Shown: positions 2,958 to 31,445 of the stretch, in pieces
How the letters are laid out: the number at the start of each line of letters is the position of its first letter
Position numbering within the stretch: position 1 is the first letter of the stretch
Source of the DNA: a virus
Reading direction: 5' to 3' (one strand)
DNA: 44,147 nucleotides
IMG/VR virus record: IMGVR_UViG_3300031507_000015
Coordinates: 1-44,147 of that record
The notes under the pieces: model-generated
What the model was told of the DNA's origin: nothing
The model's database searches: none
What the model saw: only the letters and a program-made list of their open reading frames with translations
Program-made: the position numbers and the translations under genes

Positions 2958-3629
2958 CTATCCTCTGTAGAATTGCGGCGGCTGGAATGCCGCGCGGAGC
3001 TTCGATAGATCGACCGGCCGGCGCGGGCTGGCGAAGATCGGGTTCAAAGGCTGTTGCGGCGTATCGGGGACATAAGCCGGCGCGCTGGCATATTGCTGCT
3101 GAGGCTGTGGGGCGGCCTGTGGTGCCTGCGCGAAGATAGGAGCTGACTGTGCTTGCGGGGCGATCATGGCGGGCTGTGAGGCTGCTGGAGCCGCCTGCGG
3201 ATATTGCGAGAACCAAGCCGCCTCTTTCGCTCGCCGCGCAACCAAGCCGGGGTTAACTTCACCGCCAGCCTTATTGTATTGCTGCATGCGAGCTGCAGCG
3301 CCTTCTAGATCTCCCTTGCGAACGAGATCACCCAGCCCTGATTGTGACCAGCCGGGGCCGGCGTTATAGGTCAGGGAGGTGAGAGCAGCCCGAGGCCCCG
3401 GAGGAAGATTAGGATTGACCGAATCGACATGCGCGGCGGCTTGGGCTAGTTCGTCTTGAAATCGCTGCTCATAAACATTTTTTAGCTGATCAGGCGGGAT
3501 ATTCTCGTCGCCGGGCTGGGCTTTCGTTCCATAGCCTGAGCTATATTGCTTATAATCCCATGATGCGGTTGGAGCGTATCCTTCGATCGATTTGATTGCG
3601 TCGATATATTGAGGATCAAGAACGGCCAT
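2958..3629 (-). CDS. Virion-associated lysozyme (T4-lysozyme/GH24-like N-domain plus Pro/Gln/Ala-rich tail)
   Basis: IDAIKSIEGY...GYGT...LTSLTYNAG pattern of GH24 phage lysozymes. ATG 3629 is preferred over the TTG at 3650. Last gene of the ejection-protein block. Confidence 0.65.
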   Translation of the reverse strand: MAVLDPQYIDAIKSIEGYAPTASWDYKQYSSGYGTKAQPGDENIPPDQLKNVYEQRFQDELAQAAAHVDSVNPNLPPGPRAALTSLTYNAGPGWSQSGLGDLVRKGDLEGAAARMQQYNKAGGEVNPGLVARRAKEAAWFSQYPQAAPAASQPAMIAPQAQSAPIFAQAPQAAPQPQQQYASAPAYVPDTPQQPLNPIFASPRRPVDLSKLRAAFQPPQFYRG

Positions 3630-5816: not shown

Positions 5817-7444
5817 TTAGGTTTTACCCCGCCATCAGGCGACCAAACATAGGCGCCTGGCGCAGGAGCGCCGGCCTGGACTGAAGTGTTAGAAGATTGT
5901 CCGCCACGCAGCCGCGAGACATTGGCCTCGACCTTGGCCAGCGCGGCCTGTCCGTCCGGTCTCAGAACCGGGTATTGCTTCGCTCCTTCCTCGCCAAGAA
6001 CGCCACTGATCTGGCCGCCGAGGGCATCCAGTCGGGAGCGCATCAGTTCGCCTTCCGTCGCCAGAATAGCCGCCAGTTCCTTCGGGCTGCGAGCTCCATT
6101 GACGCTCTCGATGAAGCGATCGCGCTCGGCCGTGCCGCCTGGTGAACCCGCATAGAATTTCGTGATTTCCTGCCCGTAGTGCTGTGCGGCGCCTTTCAGG
6201 GCTTCCATTTTGGCGGCCTGCTCAGTGCCAAGGCCGCGCGCAGCGTTGACGAGCGAGGTCAAGGGAGCAATGCCAGTATCCCAATTGCCGAGATCGAGCG
6301 CTTTTTGGCTCAAATCAGCCAAATGGCCGGCCGCCGTATTGCCGATATTGATCTGTCCGCCAAGGGATGCCGGCGCGCTCGAACTGAGCTGATTGCGCAT
6401 GGTCTTGCGCGCGGCGAATGTAGCATCGTCGACCTGCTGCCCAGTATCGGCGCCGTATTTCTGCGCGATCATCTTCACGGTTTGCGTGAAGCCCTTACGC
6501 GGATTTCCAGTTGGTGTTGATTTGCCTTGGACATAATTATCCACAGCCGCCTGAATTTCCGGGGAAAATTGCTTGAGATAGTCCTGACCTGTCAGGCTGC
6601 TGTCGATCGATTTGACGCCAGGTGCGAGGAAGCCACCGCTTGCAGGCGATCCGCCGGTCTCGCCCGGTCCGATCGGACGGCCATTGATGGTCTGATCGCG
6701 CTCGTTTACGAAACCGTAATTCTCATTCCCGAAGGCGTCGACGCCTGTTTTCTGGTATTTTTCCTTGTTCGTCAGCGCTTCACTTACCAGTGTTTTTGCA
6801 GCTTCAGGATTGAGCACGGCAAGCATGGCGTTCTGCGGCGTCATGCCAGACCCGATGAAAGCCTGATATTGGGCCTGCTGGTTCTGCCGCATAATATCCT
6901 GCGGCGAACCCTGCCCCATGCCGAAGCCACCGGCGAGCGCGCCTGCGATCAAGCCAAGCGGACCACCTTGCAGATTGGCCATGGCACCACGGAGCGCACC
7001 ACCGAAGCCGCTCGCACTCGGCGGCTGCATGAATGCGGCTTGGACGGCAGGAGGCGTAGACGTTCCCTGTGTTGGCTGAGCGGCTGGAGGGGTATCGACC
7101 TGTTGCGACTGGTAGAGGTCGGGATTTCCCACGCGCGGCATCTGATAACCGCCGACTGCGATCGGCGAGGCGCGCTCAGGCTGGGGAGCGGCCTGCGGCG
7201 GCACAATGCTTGCTGGAGGCGTTGGTGCGCCAGGCACAGGATCAGGCAAGCCGGGCTGATAGCCGGGGCGAGACAACAGGCTCATCATCTGCTGTTCAAC
7301 AGGATTCAGCGGCTTTTGATCCGGCTGGTTGGCAAAAACTGGTCCAAATCCCTGCGATTGCGGATTCTGATATTGCCAGTCACGGGGCAAGCCACCGAGG
7401 AGCCCTCCGCTGCTATCGGAGAACAATGCGTCCAACAGGCCCAT
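5813..7444 (-). CDS. Internal virion / ejection protein
   Basis: 543 aa. Pro/Gln-rich N-half. GAGGA 5 nt upstream of ATG 7444. Assigned by position only. Confidence 0.4.
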   Translation of the reverse strand: MGLLDALFSDSSGGLLGGLPRDWQYQNPQSQGFGPVFANQPDQKPLNPVEQQMMSLLSRPGYQPGLPDPVPGAPTPPASIVPPQAAPQPERASPIAVGGYQMPRVGNPDLYQSQQVDTPPAAQPTQGTSTPPAVQAAFMQPPSASGFGGALRGAMANLQGGPLGLIAGALAGGFGMGQGSPQDIMRQNQQAQYQAFIGSGMTPQNAMLAVLNPEAAKTLVSEALTNKEKYQKTGVDAFGNENYGFVNERDQTINGRPIGPGETGGSPASGGFLAPGVKSIDSSLTGQDYLKQFSPEIQAAVDNYVQGKSTPTGNPRKGFTQTVKMIAQKYGADTGQQVDDATFAARKTMRNQLSSSAPASLGGQINIGNTAAGHLADLSQKALDLGNWDTGIAPLTSLVNAARGLGTEQAAKMEALKGAAQHYGQEITKFYAGSPGGTAERDRFIESVNGARSPKELAAILATEGELMRSRLDALGGQISGVLGEEGAKQYPVLRPDGQAALAKVEANVSRLRGGQSSNTSVQAGAPAPGAYVWSPDGGVKPK

Positions 7445-7452
7445 TTCGATCC

Positions 7453-8322
7453 TCAGAAGTTAAACGTCATGGGAGCCTTGGGAATGAGCGAGCCGATACC
7501 GCCCGTGATCTTGGCGAACTGATCGGCTCCGCTCATCTGCTGGGTGCCCTGAGACTGACCGGTGGACTGTGAACCTAGCCCAGCAATCGGGATTCCGATC
7601 TGGGCAAGCAATCCAAGAGCCTGCACAGGGATCCCTCGTCGCGCCGCTTCAGCCTGTAATATGGCGTTTGCCGGCGCATTGGCGGCATCCGTAGCCGCAC
7701 CTGCTGCAGTCACGCCCTGCCCTCGATTTGCCAGAGCTTGTTGGCTCATCCCGGTTTGAAGGCCGGCAGTCGTATTACCAGCCTGATAGAGATTGCCGGC
7801 TGCGCCCTGTTGGTTCTGGACGTTCTGATTATATTGCGCTGCGATAGTTGGAGCCACACCTTGCAGGATGCCACGACCAAGCGTTTGGGAGTTCATTCCT
7901 GAGAAATCCCGACCGGCGGCTGCGAACTGGCCGTTCGTGCTGTTGGTGATATCACCGATCGTCGTGTTCAGCGCATCACTGAAGCCCGGCGTGCTCATCG
8001 GATTGTAGTTTGTATTCGAGGCCAGCGGATTTGTCTGGTCGACATAGCGCTGATAGTTGGCATTGACGTTGCCGGATTGATCCGTAGCACCGCCGCCTCC
8101 AAATAGATCGGTCGCATATTGCTTGATCTGAGGAGCGAATTGGCCAGATTGTCCGGCGTTCTGCTCGAGCGTATTGATCGCGCCGTTTTCCTGCCCGGTC
8201 AGGCCCGTGTTGTTCAAGCCCGTGCTGATCTGGCCCAGGATACCCTGCAAGGCAGGCTGCGCGGCGGTCCACGGCTGCGTAGTGCTGTTCTGGGTCTGCT
8301 GACTGCTGCTCTGTCCGCCCAT
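7453..8322 (-). CDS. Gln/Asn/Gly-rich virion protein (ejection or tail-associated)
   Basis: 289 aa of low-complexity Q/N/G/T-rich sequence. One-base stop/start overlap at 8322. Confidence 0.4.
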   Translation of the reverse strand: MGGQSSSQQTQNSTTQPWTAAQPALQGILGQISTGLNNTGLTGQENGAINTLEQNAGQSGQFAPQIKQYATDLFGGGGATDQSGNVNANYQRYVDQTNPLASNTNYNPMSTPGFSDALNTTIGDITNSTNGQFAAAGRDFSGMNSQTLGRGILQGVAPTIAAQYNQNVQNQQGAAGNLYQAGNTTAGLQTGMSQQALANRGQGVTAAGAATDAANAPANAILQAEAARRGIPVQALGLLAQIGIPIAGLGSQSTGQSQGTQQMSGADQFAKITGGIGSLIPKAPMTFNF

Positions 8323-8735
8323 CAGGCTAACTCCTTCTCTAAAACCACATGCTCGACGTGATAACCGTCAAGCACGCGATGCCAGCCTTTCCGGCCAAAT
8401 ATTCTCATGACTGCGCAACCTTCATCTTTTGCAAAAGCTTCAAGCCTCTGCAGAAGTGGCAACCAATTGGCTCTGTGATGACCGGCGCAGGCTGTCAGGA
8501 CGCAAACCTTGTCGCCATTAGTCAGCGTCAGATGCGTGGTTGCGGCGGCTTCAATCGACTTATTGACGATCGCCAACCAGAGCAGTTGCCTGCCAGCGAG
8601 GACTTCACCCTCGAACTCGGCAAAATCACTCAGTCCAGTTTGATCAATCGCAGATTTGATCAGATGTCGTGCATGCGGCCAGACGTCAGCTATTCGCGCT
8701 GGATCGACGCAAGCGAGACTAGCCGAGTATGGCAT
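8322..8735 (-). CDS. GNAT-like acetyltransferase candidate
   Basis: 137 aa from ATG 8735 (the track start 8792 overlaps the upstream gene by 74 nt). The C-half VCVLTACAGHHRANWLPLLQRLEAFAKDEGCAVMRIFGRKGW resembles a GNAT core. Weak. Confidence 0.35.
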   Translation of the reverse strand: MPYSASLACVDPARIADVWPHARHLIKSAIDQTGLSDFAEFEGEVLAGRQLLWLAIVNKSIEAAATTHLTLTNGDKVCVLTACAGHHRANWLPLLQRLEAFAKDEGCAVMRIFGRKGWHRVLDGYHVEHVVLEKELA

Positions 8736-9042
8736 ACAAAAACGTGCGCCCAGTCGTTGCACTAACGGTATGGGTGATCGTGAAGCTTCCATTGGCTACC
8801 GTCGACACGTACCAACTTCCAGAGCCAAACTCAGTCCCGGCATTCGCCGTGATTGGCGTCAGAATTGGCTGTGAGCCCGTCGCGATCGTTCCTGTTTGCG
8901 TCGGAGTGACGACCGTGGTTGCCGATCCAGTAGCCAGCGTCACCGTTCCAGTTGCGTTCGATCGACCGGCAGCGAGTTGTTGAAGCGATAGAATGATCTT
9001 CTTGAGATCGGTTTCCGTGATGCCTGGAACGTAGGCTGTCAT
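8719..9042 (-). CDS. Hypothetical virion-module protein
   Basis: 107 aa, Thr/Gly-rich. TAATG overlap with the upstream gene at 9042. Confidence 0.5.
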   Translation of the reverse strand: MTAYVPGITETDLKKIILSLQQLAAGRSNATGTVTLATGSATTVVTPTQTGTIATGSQPILTPITANAGTEFGSGSWYVSTVANGSFTITHTVSATTGRTFLYAILG

Positions 9043-10751
9043 TAATTTGTTCCGTTCGTAGTTACGTCAGGTACGACACCGACGATATAGGTCCACACCG
9101 TTGCGGCCGGAATGCGCACCTTATAGCGGATATAGCGAGCGTCCCTCATCATATCACATCGGCCTGTCCGAGTGCTCATGGCCACTTCATTTCCAAGGAT
9201 CGAGGTCAAAGCCTGCGTATCCCGATAGGTGACGGAACCCCGCACATCCGGCGAATCCGTGATCGGACGGAAACCTCGCAGCGTGACCCTGATATCGTCG
9301 TCGCCCTGCTCAGAGCTTTCAATCATGGCCTCAAGAGGTGCTCCAGAGAAGAACCCGAGCACATGCGACGAATTGAACTGAGCTATTTGCGGTTGAACCG
9401 CCGTTGCGTAGGAATCGAGCGAAAGCGTGAGAGCATCGATCGATGACGATATCGTATCGAGATTTTCCAAGGTTAGACCGGTCTGCGAGATACCGAGCAG
9501 ATATTCTCCAGTCTGTGAAACCGTGAAAAATCGATCAAGCAAGTAGTCATATCCGAGGATCTTGTCATAATTGCCAACGATACCTGATACTGACTTGTAG
9601 GCCCAATAAACCCATGTCGTTCGAGGATCTGACGCCCCCATGAAAAGTTGAAGATTGCCCTTGTCGAGATCAAGCAGGAAGGTACGGTCGACCTTCTCCC
9701 GGCCGATCTGCTCCGGTACTCCACCGGGAGCGATCTTGTAGAAGCCCTGACCTGCATAGAAAAAGATCAGTTCGCCGGCACGGATAATGGAATAGGGAGC
9801 AAAAAGGCCCTTGTCCTGCGTGATGCGGTCAATCTGGAAGATAATCGGAGAACCGGGAACGTAGGACATTCGCCGTATGGCCTGGTCCTGAAAGATAATC
9901 CCGGCCTCACCACCAGCCACTCCGCGAACAATACCACCGTCCGGAAAGTCCTGAAAATCGCTCGACTTGATGCCGCTGGTCCAGCTATCCGATGCGTTGA
10001 AGTTATTCAGGCCAGACCATTGTATGCGATACGGAAGCGAGAGAAGACCTGAGAGCACAAGGAAACGCCCGACGACACTGATATAGGCCGCCTGAGGAGG
10101 TGAACCGAGTGCATTGACGAAGGTTGCCGAAGACGACAGATCGAAGACTTGCAATACCACATTGGCTTGTGTCGCAAAGACCAGATTTCCGGTCTGGGCA
10201 AACTGCCATTGCGCAGAAGATCCAACATCAAGATAATGCGAGGTTACAGAATGCGTACCGCTGCCGCCCGTCGTCGTATTGATGCGCGCGCCACCCACCG
10301 TAGCCGACACGCTGAACACACTTCCAGAAAGACCCGTAGCGCTGACATAGTAGGTCGTTGCTGCCGTTAGCGGGGCCGGAAGCGTTCCCGTGGTGGAGAA
10401 TTGAACAGGCTCATTGGCAACGAAATCATTCGTATAAGTGACAATGCCTGGACTTGCATTCGAGATCGAGGCGACAGCAGCCGGAACGCCAACGCCTTTC
10501 CATGTGAACGTCGTATTGTCCAGCATGTAAAGACCATGCTTGGTCGCCGCGAACACGACCACCGAGCCATCGGATTTAAGGGCATAGAAACCGCCGCGAC
10601 AGATATCGACGAGAGCTGACGTATAGGCCGCAAAGCTTGGGAAAGGTCCATATCCATCGCCGCGCGGAACGACGTTGAGGATATTGTGCAGGCTCGTTCC
10701 TTCATAATCAGAAGTATCTGGCCGCCAATCTGAAAACTGAAGAAGCGGCAT
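9042..10751 (-). CDS. Tail hub / nozzle-like protein
   Basis: 569 aa with repetitive beta-rich sequence. Size and position are comparable to podoviral tail tubular B proteins. The function is inferred. Confidence 0.4.
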   Translation of the reverse strand: MPLLQFSDWRPDTSDYEGTSLHNILNVVPRGDGYGPFPSFAAYTSALVDICRGGFYALKSDGSVVVFAATKHGLYMLDNTTFTWKGVGVPAAVASISNASPGIVTYTNDFVANEPVQFSTTGTLPAPLTAATTYYVSATGLSGSVFSVSATVGGARINTTTGGSGTHSVTSHYLDVGSSAQWQFAQTGNLVFATQANVVLQVFDLSSSATFVNALGSPPQAAYISVVGRFLVLSGLLSLPYRIQWSGLNNFNASDSWTSGIKSSDFQDFPDGGIVRGVAGGEAGIIFQDQAIRRMSYVPGSPIIFQIDRITQDKGLFAPYSIIRAGELIFFYAGQGFYKIAPGGVPEQIGREKVDRTFLLDLDKGNLQLFMGASDPRTTWVYWAYKSVSGIVGNYDKILGYDYLLDRFFTVSQTGEYLLGISQTGLTLENLDTISSSIDALTLSLDSYATAVQPQIAQFNSSHVLGFFSGAPLEAMIESSEQGDDDIRVTLRGFRPITDSPDVRGSVTYRDTQALTSILGNEVAMSTRTGRCDMMRDARYIRYKVRIPAATVWTYIVGVVPDVTTNGTN

Positions 10752-16482: not shown

Positions 16483-17445
16483 TTACGAGGTAGTGTTGTC
16501 GAAAACGCCGCCCGACGATTTCTCGTTGCGGGCGACGAGGGCGTATTCGGCCAGAATCTGACGTCGATCCGAATCGCCGGTCTTGGCGAGCGGAATGGAG
16601 ATCATGTTGCGGCCGTTGAGATAGGCGAGCGCCCATTTCTCGATTTCGAGGATCAGGACATCGCGAGCCCGCTGAAAGCGATCGGCGACGACCTTGAGCT
16701 TGCCGAAATCGCTTTCGTAAGCGTCGACAGATGCGACGATCTTCTTGCTTGACGCCTGTTCGATCGCGGAAGACCGGCCGGTGAAGGTCGAAAACACTTG
16801 CTTGTTGAAGGCGCCGGTCATGATCGTTCCCGGCTTGCCGCCATTGGTCCAGATCGAGGATAGGACGGTTTTCATGCGGTTTTCGGTGAAGGCAAGCTGG
16901 GTGCCATCAGTCCTGGAACCCGTACCATCAGCCGCAGCCGGATCGGCAGCGCCGCCCGCAGTTCCCTTTGAGGTGTTCGACTTGATCCACGACAGGACGG
17001 AAGCTGTCTTGCGGGGAGTTGCGTCGGCGCCAGCCACCTTGGCCTGGTTGGTTCCCGCCAGGATGGTTTCGAGATCGCGCTTCAGCTCAAGACCCTTGAG
17101 CATCTCCTGATAGGCCAGCTCATTGTCGCGGCCGGCATGCTGAACGGCCTGCTGGGTACCCGAGACACGGGCAACCTTGTAGCTGATCTGGCATTGGTTG
17201 CCGAGACGCACGGTAGGCGTCGTGGAGTTGGTCGTGGGGTCATCACCCTCGAGCTGGGCGTTGGTGCCATCGGCCGCCGCAAGAGCCTGGGTCTGCCATT
17301 CGTGATTGACGGCGGTCGCCTTTTCACGGGCGATCGACGACATGAACGGGGTATCGGTCGGATCGATGCGATAAATCATATCCGACAGGTCCTCACGATT
17401 GCCGATCGCTTCCGGCGTCGCGAAGGTGTTGGTTGGGAGTGCCAT
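16483..17445 (-). CDS. Major capsid protein (HK97-fold family used by BPP-1/SU10-type podoviruses)
   Basis: 320 aa. N-terminal IGNREDLSDMIYRIDPTDTPFMSSI...HEWQTQAL signature. Follows the scaffold gene. Confidence 0.8.
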   Translation of the reverse strand: MALPTNTFATPEAIGNREDLSDMIYRIDPTDTPFMSSIAREKATAVNHEWQTQALAAADGTNAQLEGDDPTTNSTTPTVRLGNQCQISYKVARVSGTQQAVQHAGRDNELAYQEMLKGLELKRDLETILAGTNQAKVAGADATPRKTASVLSWIKSNTSKGTAGGAADPAAADGTGSRTDGTQLAFTENRMKTVLSSIWTNGGKPGTIMTGAFNKQVFSTFTGRSSAIEQASSKKIVASVDAYESDFGKLKVVADRFQRARDVLILEIEKWALAYLNGRNMISIPLAKTGDSDRRQILAEYALVARNEKSSGGVFDNTTS

Positions 17446-18976: not shown

Positions 18977-19314
18977 CAGATGATTTTGTCCTCATCCGGG
19001 ACATCTCCACCCTCGACTTGGGCGTTTACCGGCTCGTTGACCGCGTCGGATCGCTCGATCTCGCCAGAGAGCGCAACATGGTATTGCGGGCCATCCACTG
19101 CGGTCGCAGGGTCTGCCATGGGCATCGCAAAAACGGGCTTCGAAGCAAGCTTCATGCTGTCTTCGCCCATAGCGATGACCGGCGATGGAGCCTTGACGAT
19201 ATCCCAACCCTCCGAGCGGAGCCGCTCCAGGATTTCCCGGATCTCGCCCTGTCCAAACCGAGCCATGTGGGTCTTGTCGCGGAGAAATTTGATCAGGTCT
19301 TCATCATTTTGCAT
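18976..19314 (-). CDS. Hypothetical head-module protein
   Basis: 112 aa, acidic. Overlaps the portal 3' end by 11 nt. Confidence 0.55.
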   Translation of the reverse strand: MQNDEDLIKFLRDKTHMARFGQGEIREILERLRSEGWDIVKAPSPVIAMGEDSMKLASKPVFAMPMADPATAVDGPQYHVALSGEIERSDAVNEPVNAQVEGGDVPDEDKII

Positions 19315-21085
19315 TGTTTGGCTCCGGTTTCTGCCTCATCTGCTCTAATTTTGCCTCATGCGTAGCTTGAGCATGTTCCATTTTCGTATCGTGCGCATGG
19401 GCTGTAGCCGCCATATCGACGACCTTCGAAACAACATCGGCGTGATGCAACTGAGCACCCTGCCGCATTTTCTGCTCAGCCTGGATTGCCGCGATATGCG
19501 CGTTGATGATCGCAATCTTGGCGTCGAGATCGGCCTTGACCTTGGCAACCTCGATATCAGCCTGAGCTTTGATCTGCTGATGAAGCATGTCAGCTTGGGC
19601 GGTCGCCTGATCATGAGCCTGTTTCTGCTGGGCGATCTGCTGTTGACCCTGCTGCTTGAGCTGCTCGACCTGCAATTTAGGATCAGGTGCAGGCGGAGCA
19701 GGCGGATGCAGCAATTGCCCGGTCTTAGGATCTTTGGCGGTGGGATCATTGAAAAACTGATCCGGGTTCTTGTGGCCCATGATCTTGGTGAGCTCGGACG
19801 CAGTATTGTATAATTCCCGATCTCCAACCAAATTCGACTTTCCGCCAGCCAACATTTCCTTCTGAACATTGGCTATCGCCATGGTCTGAGCGAACTGCTG
19901 GGCCTTGCCACCGGTTCCAAGCCCGACATTAATTGTCATGTCGTCGCGGGTTTTCCAGTTGCGCGGATCGACCGGTACCCATTTATTGCGAAGCCGAACG
20001 GTCTGTTCTTCCTGCCCGTGCGATCTGATCGTATGGTGCAGCAGCGCGAAGATTTCCCGCACGCCCTCGGCCATGATACGAGCCACCAGTTTGACGCGCA
20101 TCTGAGAGGCCGAGAATACCTGAGCCACCGCGGTAGCCGATTGGTTTTGCAGCGCGTTGGCATCTAAGCCCTGCGTCTGCTTGGCCAAGCCGGTACGAGA
20201 CTCCAGCAGGCTATCCATATACTCCATTGCTTTAAACGCCGAGGCGGATGTATCCGGAATCTCTTGCCATTTCAAAAGACCAGCCGCTTTGGTACGAATC
20301 ACTCGACCTGGACGTTTAGGACCAAGCAAGTCATCAATCGTACTTGGACCACTCGCGGCCTCAGGTAATTCAACATCTGCGCCCGTTGATAAATATTGGC
20401 TATCAAGCCCATTTCTGAGCAACGCAGTCTTAATTCGTTGCGTCGGCATGACGAGATCAGCCATCGACCGGCCAAAGAATCGATGCGTGATCGGAACCGG
20501 AGTGGTCGCGGCGAACGGAATGATATCAACCGGCTCGACAACTTCTTTGCCGCCCTTTTTCAGGATATCGGCCTGATCTCCTCCGGTTATCACCATGTAA
20601 AGGCATGGAGTTCCACGCCCCTCGTAGTCCATCCTGATATAATGCTCGGTGATGCGAACCAATTGCATCAGAGCATCGACGTCAGAGGACGTGATGAAAT
20701 GCTCCTGGACCGAATCTCTGGCCAAGGTTTCAACGTTGTTCGGGCTCTGGCCGCTGAACGCTGTCAGGCCGAGAACCTGGTCCCGATCGAATCCCTCATT
20801 GATCAGCTGTCCCCGCGTCTTGGTCACAACTTCATGGAAGCAGTAATTGCAATCCTTGATGTTGCGCGCCGCGCGCTCGATCCCGAATTCTTCCGGCGGA
20901 ACTCCCATCACCCGAGCCCGCGCCAGTTTGCGGGTGGTGATGATCGTGACGTCGTGCGTGACCGGCTTAGGCGGCACTGGAGGCATTGCAGCCATCTGCT
21001 GCTGGGGCGTCATCGGAGCAAGCGCGTTCTGGGCTGGCCCTTGATCGATTGGGTTGCCCTGAGCCGCGCCGACGTATGCGTTCAT
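19304..21085 (-). CDS. Portal protein, C-terminal major part
   Basis: 593 aa. Portal-type VPPEEFGIERAARNIKDCNYCFHEV region and a ~130-aa C-terminal coiled coil. Follows the terminase. Confidence 0.8.
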   Translation of the reverse strand: MNAYVGAAQGNPIDQGPAQNALAPMTPQQQMAAMPPVPPKPVTHDVTIITTRKLARARVMGVPPEEFGIERAARNIKDCNYCFHEVVTKTRGQLINEGFDRDQVLGLTAFSGQSPNNVETLARDSVQEHFITSSDVDALMQLVRITEHYIRMDYEGRGTPCLYMVITGGDQADILKKGGKEVVEPVDIIPFAATTPVPITHRFFGRSMADLVMPTQRIKTALLRNGLDSQYLSTGADVELPEAASGPSTIDDLLGPKRPGRVIRTKAAGLLKWQEIPDTSASAFKAMEYMDSLLESRTGLAKQTQGLDANALQNQSATAVAQVFSASQMRVKLVARIMAEGVREIFALLHHTIRSHGQEEQTVRLRNKWVPVDPRNWKTRDDMTINVGLGTGGKAQQFAQTMAIANVQKEMLAGGKSNLVGDRELYNTASELTKIMGHKNPDQFFNDPTAKDPKTGQLLHPPAPPAPDPKLQVEQLKQQGQQQIAQQKQAHDQATAQADMLHQQIKAQADIEVAKVKADLDAKIAIINAHIAAIQAEQKMRQGAQLHHADVVSKVVDMAATAHAHDTKMEHAQATHEAKLEQMRQKPEPNNAK

Positions 21086-21291
21086 TAATCGCGCCGGACC
21101 ATGAATTGACGGCTTATATCATTATACGCCGATGGTGAAAAATGCCTGATATCATCCAATACGTTGCCGGCCTCATCAGTTCTAACGTGCATCGCTGTGC
21201 CAATAGCGCCTCCGGAAATTGACACATGAACCATATAGCCAATTGGGAACATCCCCCAATTACTACACGATCTCATATAATTTTCGTTCAT
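21085..21291 (-). CDS. 68-aa ORF inserted between the two portal parts
   Basis: One-base stop/start overlaps on both sides (TGATG, TAATG). Its DNA is visibly AT-richer than the flanks. No recognisable family. Confidence 0.45.
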   Translation of the reverse strand: MNENYMRSCSNWGMFPIGYMVHVSISGGAIGTAMHVRTDEAGNVLDDIRHFSPSAYNDISRQFMVRRD

Positions 21292-21872
21292 CAGTTCGTC
21301 TCTGCCTCTTCCTTGGGCTCCGTAGCCTCCTGCGCTTCACCCTCCTGCGAATGCGCCACGATCTTCATTGCCCCATCCGACATATCAACGGCCTGAACGA
21401 GCAGCGCATATTGATCTTCGGTCAGGTCGTAATAGGTCTCGCGCTCCTCGCGCTCGTCCTCGTCCCACCAGACTTTGACCAGCCCGGTTTTGCTCAGAAG
21501 CCCGTCCTTTATGAACGAATACAGCACCATAAAGCCCGAATTCTGCTGCATGAAGACGTGGTTGACGTAATCGGTTTCCTGCTGCGCCGCTTCCTCGTCC
21601 TCTGGGCCGACAGGCTCAAACCTAACCACTTCGTCAGATCCCGCAAAGATGTCCATCAGATGCGGTAGCATGCCCTCGATCACATCAGAGACGTCGGTGG
21701 ACACTGCCCGCGACCGGCCATCCTGCGCCGGCATGTCCTGCATGTCGCCGAGATAGTATTCCATCGCCCTGGCGCGCTCTTCCATGAGCTGAGCTGCTGA
21801 CATCGCGGCTAGAGAGTTGGCCTTTTCGGCCGAAAGCATCGCCTTGAGGTCAGTTAGTTCCATCTTTGGCAA
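21291..21872 (-). CDS. Portal protein, N-terminal part (separate ORF)
   Basis: 193 aa. It carries YYLGD...GRSRAVSTDVSDVIEGMLPHLMDIF...VVRFEP...ETDYVNHVF...KDGLLSKTGLVKVWW, which I recognise as a portal N-terminal signature. TTG 21872 or ATG 21863 is the start. Confidence 0.6.
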   Translation of the reverse strand: MPKMELTDLKAMLSAEKANSLAAMSAAQLMEERARAMEYYLGDMQDMPAQDGRSRAVSTDVSDVIEGMLPHLMDIFAGSDEVVRFEPVGPEDEEAAQQETDYVNHVFMQQNSGFMVLYSFIKDGLLSKTGLVKVWWDEDEREERETYYDLTEDQYALLVQAVDMSDGAMKIVAHSQEGEAQEATEPKEEAETN

Positions 21873-21874
21873 AG

Positions 21875-22123
21875 TCAGTCCTCGCCCTTGCCATACCGGT
21901 AGAGGACACCAGCGCCGTTGACGATCTCTAGCGGATTGCGAATGGCTGGAATCAGCGTGGTCATAGCCAGCAAGGCCGAATACCTGTTGGCAAAATCCGC
22001 CTCGTCAGTCCCGATGAATTCGACGTATAGCTTGGCGGCCGCGACCACCGATTCAGCATTGGCCGCCGTTTGGGTTCCGAGCGTCAGACACTTCGAGCGG
22101 ATTAATTCTGGTGACATCGCCAT
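21875..22123 (-). CDS. Hypothetical protein
   Basis: 82 aa, between terminase and portal. Confidence 0.5.
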   Translation of the reverse strand: MAMSPELIRSKCLTLGTQTAANAESVVAAAKLYVEFIGTDEADFANRYSALLAMTTLIPAIRNPLEIVNGAGVLYRYGKGED

Positions 22124-22137
22124 TCAGCGCCAGCCGT

Positions 22138-22374
22138 TCACGGCATCGCCGCCAACGGCATTTCAGCCGAGCCAGGGCAAGCTTTACCGGGTCGCCCAAA
22201 TGCATTGTACGCATCACTACGGAACCCAACACAGGCATCCCAAACAGAACCGTCCTCGAATAGGACGGCATTAACAGATCTCACGCGTGCCGACTTAGCG
22301 GCCTCATGTGAGATCCAAGGGCCGCCTTCCGATAAGGTAACTGCGATAGTTTTTCTCATGTTGATTATCTCCAT
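22138..22374 (-). CDS. Hypothetical protein
   Basis: 78 aa. The alternative ATG 22359 (MRKT...) lies after the terminase stop and has GGAG upstream. Confidence 0.5.
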   Translation of the reverse strand: MEIINMRKTIAVTLSEGGPWISHEAAKSARVRSVNAVLFEDGSVWDACVGFRSDAYNAFGRPGKACPGSAEMPLAAMP

Positions 22375-23663
22375 CCTGTATTGCCGTAGTTCATCGGCCT
22401 GTTGAAATTCGCCTCATTAGCCGGCGGCTGGTAGCAAATCGCCATCATTCCAATCGAATCTGCTGCATGGCTTGCCCAGTTATGCTCCGGGCCAAGGCCG
22501 ACATTGCGAACCTCGTCCCGTTTTTCATGATAGTGAACCAGCGCATTGCGGCCGGGTTCCGTCGTTGCCTCGTTCCACCAGATCTTATCTCCAATGCGCC
22601 GCAACGCTTCGACACGTCGGAGTGCAGCGCCCTTGCCCTGATTCTTGACCGGCGGTTCAACCTTAAACCCGGCCTCGCGCCAATGATCCTCGTATTTCTT
22701 ACCGGTGATCTTGTCGGATTCTACACCATCATGCGGCAGGTAGTTGATTGCCGCCTCATAGCCTCGAGCTCTCATCCAGTTGACATGATAGGCGAGGACT
22801 TGCCCGACCGACTCGTAATAGTCTAGCACTCGGATTTCCTGCCCCACCCATTGGGTAATCCAGATGGTGTAGGCATCTGCTAATCCACCCGACCCGCCGA
22901 TGTCGTGGAACGCCCGCAGCGGCAGCAGTGGATCCGCCGCTACCCGTCCAATTCGGCCCTCAGCTTGGGCCTTCGCCATCATCTGCGCGTAATAAGCACC
23001 GATGATTGCCGCATCGAACGAACATTCGAACTCGCGGTCATATTGATCCTGGGTCAGTCCCTCTTTGAGGCTTGCGAGTTCCTCAGCCGGAATGATACCC
23101 GTTTCGCTGGCCTTCAGGATGCGTCTGAACCAGCCATCGGCCGATCTGCCGTCCTCCAGCCGGTCTACCTTGTAGAACCAGTCACGACCCGCAGGAGTGC
23201 CGATAAAAGTAGCCCAGCCAGAATAATCCGAAAGAGTCGGTCGAATGACTTCTGGCCATGCCCTGGGATCCATGAGCGCCGGCTCGTCGATCGTAACGCC
23301 ATCATGATATAGACCGCGAAGCCGATCGTAATTATCCGCGCCATAAAGCCTGATGCGAGATCCATTCGGGTATTCAACGCTCAGGTCAGATTCGCGCGGG
23401 TCAATTCCTGGGATCGGCGATGAATAGTACTTCAGGTAACTCCAAGCCACGTCCTTCGCCTGCGCATAGGTTGGAGCAATATAGGCATAGCGCGGTGGTG
23501 GATGCTGCCTGGTGTTGGTCAGCGCGGCCTTGATCTTATCATTGATGCAGCCAACGGTTTTACCGAAGCGCCGGTGAGCGACGATCTTGGCAAATCTCTC
23601 GGTGCGGTCGTGGTAGGCTTCGAACTGCGGTCGAGGTCGATAGGGTATGACTATCGTTGCCAT
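22365..23663 (-). CDS. terL: Terminase large subunit
   Basis: 432 aa. Walker A-like HRRFGKT and Walker B-like GVTIDEP. The C-terminal nuclease-type region includes HDIGGSGGLADAYTIW. Confidence 0.9.
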   Translation of the reverse strand: MATIVIPYRPRPQFEAYHDRTERFAKIVAHRRFGKTVGCINDKIKAALTNTRQHPPPRYAYIAPTYAQAKDVAWSYLKYYSSPIPGIDPRESDLSVEYPNGSRIRLYGADNYDRLRGLYHDGVTIDEPALMDPRAWPEVIRPTLSDYSGWATFIGTPAGRDWFYKVDRLEDGRSADGWFRRILKASETGIIPAEELASLKEGLTQDQYDREFECSFDAAIIGAYYAQMMAKAQAEGRIGRVAADPLLPLRAFHDIGGSGGLADAYTIWITQWVGQEIRVLDYYESVGQVLAYHVNWMRARGYEAAINYLPHDGVESDKITGKKYEDHWREAGFKVEPPVKNQGKGAALRRVEALRRIGDKIWWNEATTEPGRNALVHYHEKRDEVRNVGLGPEHNWASHAADSIGMMAICYQPPANEANFNRPMNYGNTGWR

Positions 23664-30503: not shown

Positions 30504-31445
30504 ATGAACCAAATTGCACGCATTCAGCCGGCAGGCATCGCCTCGTGGACCTCGCGCCAGTTGGACACCATCAAGCGTACCGTCGCACGGGATACGAATG
30601 ACGACGAGTTCAATCTGTTCATCGAATATGCGCGGTCGAAGCAGCTCGATCCGTTCTCGAAACAGATCATCGCTGTCGTCTATTCGAAGGACAACGCTGA
30701 AAAGCGAAAAATGACGATCATTGTGACGCAGGACGGCCAGCGCGTCTTGGCCTCCCGCTGCCGCGATTATCGCCCAGCCGAAACCGAGCCAGAGTTCATT
30801 ATTCAGGCCGGCCTGAAATGCCCAACGAATCCGCTCGGCCTTGAAAAGGTAACGATCACGCTGTGGAAGCAGGACAGCGGCGCGGTGTGGCACCCGGTCA
30901 AGGGCTGGGCCTATTGGGACGAATACGCGCCGGTCAAGGAAGAATGGGCATACAGCCAGGAAGAGAACAAGCGCAAGCCGACCGGGAAACTGACGCTCGA
31001 TGCCTCTGGAAATTGGGCCAAGATGCCCCGCGTGATGCTGGCGAAGTGCGCCAATATGGTCGCGCTGCGCGCCGGATGGCCCGAAACATTCTCCGGACTT
31101 TACGTCGAGGAAGAGATGGAACGCACTGTCGTTCAGGACAGGACCGCCTCTGAACTGGTCGAGATGGAGCGCGAAGATCGCCGTATGAAGTCCATCTCCA
31201 TGTCGGACGACGAATACCCCTTCGTCGACCATGAAGGGACAATGACGTTCATCCCAGCCGGCCGCTACGGCGATCGCGTCATCATGACTGCCAGGAACTG
31301 CACCGAGTTGGCCGAACTCGACAGCATGAAGGTCCGCAACCGGGAGGGCCTGCAGCGCTTCTGGGCTCGTCACAAGGATGATGCGCTGTCTGTGAATGCG
31401 GAGATGGAGAAGCTTCGCGCAGCGCTCACAAAGGCCGCGTCATGA
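30504..31445 (+). CDS. recT: RecT/Bet-family single-strand annealing protein
   Basis: 313 aa. N-terminal region LDTIKRTVARDTNDDEFNLFIEYARSKQLDPFSKQIIAV is typical of RecT. Confidence 0.8.
   Translation: MNQIARIQPAGIASWTSRQLDTIKRTVARDTNDDEFNLFIEYARSKQLDPFSKQIIAVVYSKDNAEKRKMTIIVTQDGQRVLASRCRDYRPAETEPEFIIQAGLKCPTNPLGLEKVTITLWKQDSGAVWHPVKGWAYWDEYAPVKEEWAYSQEENKRKPTGKLTLDASGNWAKMPRVMLAKCANMVALRAGWPETFSGLYVEEEMERTVVQDRTASELVEMEREDRRMKSISMSDDEYPFVDHEGTMTFIPAGRYGDRVIMTARNCTELAELDSMKVRNREGLQRFWARHKDDALSVNAEMEKLRAALTKAAS

Follow-up and report, generated by a model that had tools for sequence, protein, structure and literature searches.

A clade-wide division of the portal gene, probably bridged by translational coupling, and a small foreign insertion at its seam in a podophage-type genome

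In the 44,147-nucleotide (nt) viral genome IMGVR_UViG_3300031507_000015 (an IMG/VR record; positions 1 to 44,147, the whole stretch analysed, are referred to below as the window), the gene for the portal protein is divided between two open reading frames (ORFs), termed here the N-part and the C-part, with a third ORF of 68 amino acids (aa), orf68, between them. The window is a podophage-type genome encoding a large terminase, an SU10-type capsid protein, a tail-collar fibre and RecT. We consider it likely that the portal is an ancient case of ‘genes in pieces’ whose two products are made by translational coupling, that the seam between the two genes is a permissive slot for foreign DNA and that orf68 is a recent insertion into this slot. 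The features of the locus are as follows.

21291..21872, minus strand, portal N-part gene (193 aa from the TTG at 21872, or 190 aa from the ATG at 21863)
21085..21291, minus strand, orf68 (68 aa, GC-poor, occupying the entire 206-nt insert)
19304..21085, minus strand, portal C-part gene (593 aa)
21289..21293, minus strand, junction 1, TGATG (one-base overlap of the N-part stop and the orf68 start)
21083..21087, minus strand, junction 2, TAATG (one-base overlap of the orf68 stop and the C-part start)
21285..21291, minus strand, left copy of the 7-nt direct repeat ATGAACG, at the orf68 start
21079..21085, minus strand, right copy of ATGAACG, at the C-part start
21010..21311, minus strand, recombinant tract relative to the closest relative, L002 (from DNA alignments)

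A first-pass annotation of the window had described three consecutive minus-strand ORFs in three different frames, joined by the TGATG and TAATG overlaps; all were found in place, together with a TGA at 21121-21119 that lies in the C-part frame, 36 nt 5′ of the C-part ATG. Its estimate of ∼45% guanine plus cytosine (GC) for the insert, between richer flanks, was confirmed as well: GC is 0.449 in orf68 and 0.435 over positions 21100-21299 versus 0.55-0.64 in the flanks. The ATG at 21863 is the start used in the relative L002 (loci of our survey are designated L plus a number). The genes around the portal are those of a head module, with a homologue of the large terminase TerL upstream (22365-23663) and SU10_MCP downstream (16483-17445).

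The portal identity of the 193-aa ORF was the point on which the first-pass annotation had staked its interpretation. This ORF matches positions 2-171 of the Pfam profile SU10_portal (PF23899; E 3.7e-56, 191 bits), and the 593-aa ORF, proposed as the rest of the portal, matches positions 161-592 (E 1.4e-120, 404 bits); the gathering cut-off of the profile is 30 bits. PHROG 1216 (‘portal protein’) likewise matches both. The two ORFs are thus complementary halves of one profile, and no single polypeptide spans it: the halves are two ORFs in different frames. Foldseek returned the portals of PaP3 (7sxk) and Pa223 (9nwm). The N-part aligns with residues 24-169 of the PaP3 portal and residues 39-179 of the SU10 portal (7z44), the C-part with residues 180-654 and 184-638, respectively. 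In the SU10 portal the N-terminal residues are part of the wing domain, and residues 8-44 form a helix lining the capsid interior (PMC9509320). This domain layout, combined with the alignments, assigns the capsid-facing N-terminal helix and the first wing elements to the N-part; the C-part comprises the remaining wing as well as the stem, clip, crown and C-terminal helical barrel. The solved portals of SU10 (gp6, 7z44), PaP3 (7sxk) and Pa223 (gp68, 9nwm) belong to the same family (PF23899) and share this domain order, but they are single chains of 705-747 aa, whereas here there are two chains with a break at about residue 170-183.

Alignment of both halves with intact sister portals places the break between two conserved blocks, ‘(E/K)IVEH(T/S)’ and ‘HD(V/I)T’. 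In intact homologues the linker at this site is rich in Pro, Gly and Ala and very variable in length, from ∼5 to ∼90 residues. Beyond the conserved portal blocks, the tail of the N-part and the head of the C-part amount to only about 15-40 low-complexity residues. The break therefore sits in a wing-domain loop where even single-chain portals accommodate long insertions.

A comparison with related phage genomes, which the first-pass annotation had called for, showed that the split is clade-wide. For this survey, 80 loci were retrieved from viral contigs and 79 from genomes, and junction states were assigned to 163 loci in all.

Stop/start overlap: 42 of 163 loci
Gap of <100 nt: 2 of 163 loci
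Insert of 109-5547 nt (median 1415): 87 of 163 loci
C-part beyond the fetched flank: 23 of 163 loci
Intact single ORF: 9 of 163 loci (8 basal outgroups and 1 nested secondary re-fusion, L086)

The stop of the N-part is kept at the same place in 154 of these 163 loci. Among the 42 overlap loci, 35 have a one-base overlap (TGATG in 23, TAATG in 10 and TAGTG in 2). Nearly every host named in the genome records is a Bradyrhizobium or a related alphaproteobacterium, and the split portal is also found in hundreds of assemblies from many projects. The N-part has 1767 homologues, the best 120 of which are all 182-207 aa long. When an intact portal was the query, the ∼100 matches with at least 79% identity were C-parts of 525-566 aa. 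An exhaustive search of representatives found that relatives with N-part identity of at least ∼63% are nearly all short, and that intact portals of 717-835 aa appear at identities of 62% or less; intact portals overall (687-835 aa) are confined to N-part identities of 68% or less.

In the N-part tree (an approximate neighbour-joining tree), intact forms are basal (L157 from Azospirillum, L151/152, L145/147 and L149/150/155) and split forms make one clade. Direct overlaps characterize every one of the deepest branches of this clade; forms with an insert occur here and there, chiefly in the Bradyrhizobium crown. L002, a 40-kb contig of the Joint Genome Institute (JGI) with an N-part 98% identical to that of the window, has a direct TAATG overlap and no insert. 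The notion that the insert split the portal finds no support, since L002 and all basal split lineages are insert-free yet split. On this comparison the split is ancestral to a large clade, and orf68 landed in a pre-existing seam.

Both halves look well maintained. Pairwise ratios of non-synonymous to synonymous substitution rates (dN/dS) versus the window are 0.03-0.17 for the N-part and 0.08-0.22 for the C-part, at dS >1, and the low values hold whether the gap between the halves is −1 nt or 3.7 kb. Ratios of this size at such divergence indicate that the two halves have long been kept by purifying selection. They would be hard to reconcile with a portal pseudogene, inactivated by frameshifts and an insertion and now decaying in a defective prophage or contig, an explanation that we regard as highly unlikely. 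It is true that many related loci are prophages carrying kilobases of cargo between the halves, and that some have a shortened N-part and no nearby C-part. The stop is nevertheless conserved and both ORFs are intact in >130 loci, dN/dS remains low at saturated dS, the direct-overlap form is present in a phage reported as spontaneously produced, and the rest of the window is an intact set of structural and replication genes. In the loci with a shortened N-part (L154 and L158-L163), homology to the N-part ends at about residue 131-147 and no C-part is found within ∼6 kb downstream; these loci may be degraded prophages or the products of a different rearrangement.

The spontaneously produced phage comes from Bradyrhizobium elkanii USDA 76. 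In ppBeUSDA76-2 (OP596614), a 184-aa N ORF and a 553-aa C ORF meet in a one-base TGATG overlap with nothing between them. Under the name ppUSDA76Be-2, this phage figures in Table 1 of PMC10127595 as one of the (pro)phages that the strain produces spontaneously, with podophage morphology; prophage boundaries were placed there by mapping sequence reads of phage DNA obtained from culture. The split form, with its direct TGATG junction, is thus associated with particle production. In OP596614.1 the N-part is labelled ‘hypothetical protein’ and no coding sequence is annotated over the 553-aa C-part (∼19585-21246; 3480-5141 in L001), an annotation gap caused by the split of the portal.

Could the two ORFs still yield one full-length chain? 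The first-pass annotation had listed translational bypass among its explanations, and a recoding model would use a −1 frameshift in insert-free genomes or, in the window, a hop over 206 nt like that in T4 gene 60. In direct-overlap genomes the C frame is indeed −1 relative to the N frame, and in the window the last sense codon of the N-part, AAC before TGA, equals the second codon of the C-part, which formally makes a take-off/landing pair; the match is a by-product of the ATGAACG repeat. The remaining evidence points the other way. No slippery site of the X_XXY_YYZ type is in frame at any of the 35 one-base-overlap loci, the open C frame can extend as few as 6-21 nt 5′ of its ATG, and the junctions show no sequence conservation. 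With lengths of up to 5.5 kb and genes on the opposite strand, the inserts exclude reading across the seam in most members of the clade. A gap of 206 nt is four times that of gene 60, and its RNA is unstructured (fold z = −0.06); moreover, a long hop is unnecessary given that the ancestral state was already split. Recoding, including bypass, is in our judgement very improbable indeed.

The same data bear on two further proposals of the first-pass annotation, a small intron and a pair of assembly indels. A short GC-poor insert inside an essential gene could suggest a self-splicing intron or an intein-like element, and one-base overlaps could mimic sequencing or assembly indels. A scan of positions 20500-22000 against Rfam at E ≤ 10 gave, however, only two chance matches, the insert is just 206 nt long and its RNA folds no better than shuffled sequences (the z-score given above). 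Its removal would not restore one frame either, for the insert-free relatives are also split in two frames. No Hint-type Pfam domain was found, in-frame stops are present, and the N-tail and C-head are too short to be halves of a split intein. As for indels, the same order of N-part, orf68 and C-part occurs, with flanks of different DNA sequence, on an independent contig, L004, and the stop is conserved across hundreds of independent assemblies; an assembly accident can be set aside. Taken together, an intron, an intein or indels would be an extremely improbable cause of the split.

The two-gene portal thus remains the preferred explanation, and its probable history and expression are as follows. 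A single portal gene of the SU10/PaP3 type would have been broken once, inside the length-variable and probably disordered wing loop, to give an N gene (∼190 aa) and a C gene (∼550-590 aa). One late transcript would give rise to two distinct polypeptides that assemble non-covalently, with an N chain and a C chain making up every one of the twelve portal subunits. In the basal arrangement, with the C start overlapping the N stop (TGATG or TAATG), ribosomes that finish the N-part would re-initiate on the C-part, which would give roughly equal amounts of the two chains. The seam then became permissive: unrelated DNA, from small ORFs to >5 kb of cargo, has entered, been exchanged and been lost there many times. 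In the window, a GC-poor foreign segment of ∼199 nt was inserted at the seam with a 7-nt duplication (ATGAACG) of the C start, and orf68 would be read from the duplicated ATG, which overlaps the N stop, to a TAA overlapping the C start. As the overlaps are kept at both ends of the insert, the coupling chain from the N-part through orf68 to the C-part would be preserved, and orf68 would be at least a translated bridge. Of this account, sequence comparison directly shows the split and its conservation, where the chain is broken, the selection on the two halves, the changing content of the slot and the limits of the insert; the non-covalent assembly, the expression by coupling and the translation of orf68 are inferences.

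The importance of termination-reinitiation coupling from N to C is argued chiefly from independent insertions that keep both overlaps. At least five small ORFs with a stop/start overlap at each end are found in different lineages (one shared by the window and L004, the others in L026, L072, L113 and L142); compared between loci, these ORFs are unrelated, except for a short PGGIDD tail shared by L026 and L072. No obvious Shine-Dalgarno-like sequence precedes the C-part ATG, and the one 5′ of orf68 is 13 nt away from its ATG; this would be consistent with dependence on coupling.

The boundaries of the insert are well defined by alignment with L002. The two sequences differ from about 21311 to 21010, that is, in the last ∼3 codons of the N-part, the 206-nt orf68 segment and the first ∼25 codons of the C-part, and the head of the window C-part (MNAYVG...) is of the type seen in L075 and L008. 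TAATG is formed by the last two bases of the insert, TA, and the downstream ATG, and the upstream copy of the flanking repeat overlaps the N stop as TGATG; the orf68 start is thereby a duplicate of the C-part start. The seam changes quickly: relatives with N-part identity of at least 95% show four junction states.

Direct junction: L002, L003 and L006
142-nt insert: L005
Two chained small ORFs: L007
orf68 junction: the window and L004

In L075 (∼3130-3175) and L008 (∼2520-2560) a second copy of the 3′ end of the N-part (GCGGAGCCCAAGGAAGAGGCTGAGGCGAnnTGATG) lies inside the insert, and the first inserted ORF shares terminal residues with the N-part; the duplicate looks like a recombination scar or a cassette arm.

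Only one other copy of orf68 was found among 5.8 billion proteins: the identical protein P0121 on L004, in the same context, where the ORF carries one synonymous DNA change. No family match was found in Pfam, PHROG or NCBIfam. Exact-pattern scans for the insert DNA detected no further copy in metagenome or viral contigs; hence there is no evidence of a repeated mobile element. We conclude from these comparisons that orf68 is, by all appearances, a recent and otherwise unknown insertion in the portal seam.

The first of the explanations listed by the first-pass annotation was a functional two-piece portal with an inserted moron, and this is close to what the data favour. The promoter and terminator of a classical moron were not found at or near the insert in a crude scan limited to the sigma-70 consensus. 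In lambdoid phages (morons) and at P2/P4 hotspots, genes of foreign composition lie between otherwise adjacent genes and turn over rapidly among close relatives. orf68 shares the foreign composition and the placement between genes that are adjacent in relatives; it differs in that its slot is inside what is elsewhere a single gene, and that it has no promoter or terminator of its own as an autonomous transcription unit and is chained to its neighbours by stop/start overlaps. Whether orf68 is more than a translated spacer, namely a functional, horizontally acquired and late-expressed moron (serving, for example, host takeover or anti-defence), is a question to which a positive answer is possible, if on balance rather unlikely. 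Several facts speak for it. The composition is foreign (GC of 0.449 versus 0.55-0.575), the ORF spans the whole insert, in a frame that is open in only 4.5% of dinucleotide-preserving shuffles, the sole DNA difference between the two known copies of the ORF is synonymous, the slot holds real genes in other loci, and another small ORF has been inserted in the window, at the TerL junction. Against it stand the orphan status of the ORF, its lack of a promoter or terminator in the scan above and its flat GC by codon position (GC1/2/3 of 0.45/0.42/0.46 versus 0.65/0.35/0.72 in the N-part); besides, an open frame could be selected solely for ribosome flow to the C-part.

In other loci the seam carries larger cargo. 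Crude ORF calling gave 240 candidate genes in inserts. The commonest family, F1, was counted 62 times across 50 loci; it is encoded on the portal strand without exception and is usually the final gene before the C-part. Its members start with variable regions, continue with a Pro-rich linker and share a conserved C-terminal motif, GGLLGLIQDY(L)RNN; Peptidase_M23 is the N-terminal domain in 6 of 49. The partner gene in front of F1 differs from copy to copy, and two or three partner/F1 pairs stand in tandem in some loci (L022, L053, L103, L104, L120 and L127). The partner seen most often, F2 (27 copies in 25 loci), is a protein of ∼100-150 aa with two predicted transmembrane helices, encoded always on the strand opposite to the portal and typically just upstream of F1; it has no match in Pfam, PHROG or PADLOC. 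A third family, F8, matches transglycosylase and endolysin PHROGs. In L135 a gene with an Ivy domain (lysozyme inhibitor; 7129-7944) is directly upstream of an F8 gene (8149-9183), and the two look like a pair of inhibitor and hydrolase. Examples of cargo genes are given below.

L022:1166-2032, F1
L097:8068-9510, F1
L115:6730-7947, F1
L022:635-1099(-), F2
L038:4748-5380(-), F2
L024:4601-4933(-), F2
L118:6871-7719, other Ivy or transglycosylase-type cargo
L027:5138-5983, other Ivy or transglycosylase-type cargo
L121:7809-8960, other Ivy or transglycosylase-type cargo

Peptidase_M23, Ivy and transglycosylase-like domains were the only ones in the cargo census; no cargo matched PADLOC defence models or NCBIfam models, no homologues of F1, F2 or F8 were found elsewhere in the window, and no nuclease domain, of a homing endonuclease (HNH, GIY-YIG or LAGLIDADG) or otherwise, was found in orf68 or in the ∼80 cargo proteins examined. 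One may hypothesize, tentatively and with low confidence, that the seam is a dedicated diversification locus whose cargo consists of polymorphic cassettes of cell-wall hydrolases and inhibitors. The common F1 tail would direct the hydrolases to the virion or portal, to be ejected when the phage infects; the partners would shield the lysogen or keep out related phages that superinfect, and orf68 would count as a minimal occupant of this slot.

The split has been reversed in one locus of the crown. L086 (protein P0272; 6001-8139 of NZ_JAUYAN010000180.1, a Bradyrhizobium metagenome-assembled genome) encodes an intact portal of 712 aa, the only intact sequence among the ∼100 matches with at least 79% identity, and is nested beside the insert-bearing L090 and L092. 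Its linker is the front of a normal N-tail joined in frame to the back of a normal C-head and is the result of an in-frame deletion that took out the stop, the cargo and the start. Re-fusion by deletion makes the split and single-chain forms interconvertible. This natural re-fusion, the purifying selection on both halves and the split portal of a spontaneously produced phage would lend indirect support to a reassembly of the pieces into a working protein. An AlphaFold2 (AF2) model of L086 is poor overall, too much so for an analysis of domain contacts, so that only its local features were used: residues 134-178 form confident beta and helix elements, with predicted local distance difference test (pLDDT) values of 82-90, followed by a low-confidence coil (179-197) and a confident long beta element (198-215) that begins with THDVT. 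Foldseek template-modelling scores for this model (∼0.12) are uninformative except as support for portal homology.

Several points weigh against the two-gene, coupled portal. The association of the N and C chains without a covalent link is a step that we infer from sequence; the AF2 model of L086 has a global pLDDT of 57 and a predicted template-modelling (pTM) score of 0.26; and the paper on ppUSDA76Be-2 (PMC10127595) does not mention the portal. Many of the insert-bearing loci are prophages. An extra cistron of 68 codons could lower the yield of the C-part. At 13 nt, the spacing between the Shine-Dalgarno-like sequence AAGGAAGAGG and the orf68 ATG downstream of it is long for a ribosome-binding site, and orf68 lacks host-like codon bias and is represented by only two near-identical copies.

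Close parallels exist among the genes in pieces of T4-like phages, including nrdA/mobE of Aeh1, T4 genes 60/39 with mobA, and gene 43, present as 43A/43B in phages 25 and 44RR (PMC2988022). There as here, a normally contiguous essential gene is encoded as two cistrons whose products must reassemble, and the intervening DNA differs between related phages. The overlapping stop/start UAAUGA at nrdA/mobE of Aeh1, which resembles the portal junctions, suggests translational coupling (PMC2988022). The portal likewise has contiguous relatives, the intact outgroup portals, set against the split clade. The T4-like cases are enzymes with a homing endonuclease or an untranslated spacer between the pieces, whereas the present case is a ring protein of the virion with no such nuclease found; and, unlike them, the split here is old and clade-wide and its seam is a slot for multi-gene cargo. 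A virion structural protein in two pieces is also known from a rhizobial phage lineage: the baseplate hub gp5 of Sinorhizobium phage PhiM9 is encoded as two proteins (PMC4621102). That is a different protein in a different type of phage, and variable cargo between the pieces was not described.

In the full text searched we found no split or bipartite portal in the literature, which is absence of evidence within that scope. To our knowledge, every solved portal of tailed phages and herpesviruses is a single-chain dodecamer. If the interpretation is correct, a large natural clade with two-polypeptide portals and a re-fused revertant would reveal at which point the portal fold can accommodate a break in the chain and would provide, at the portal vertex, a permissive site already made by nature for engineering or display. 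It would also extend genes in pieces from enzymes to a core virion machine; L086 would be a useful control in experiments on the split portal. There are consequences for annotation too, as many N-parts are labelled hypothetical. The seam is a previously unnoticed hotspot of accessory genes in prophages of the agriculturally important Bradyrhizobium, with cargo mostly of no assigned function that includes pairs resembling cell-wall hydrolases and inhibitors.

The second strain-specific insertion of the window, of ∼240 nt, is located at 22139-22378, at the junction of the terminase gene and an 82-aa ORF, and is missing from L002. This insertion coincides with a GC dip and contains a 78-aa ORF (22138-22374, minus strand), whose start overlaps the TerL stop, and a terminator-like hairpin at 22269-22249. 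Small ORFs wedged at gene junctions seem to be recurrent in this phage. The window also encodes, at 30504-31445 on the plus strand, a single-strand annealing recombinase of the RecT family, which could favour the exchange of seam cassettes via short conserved flanks.

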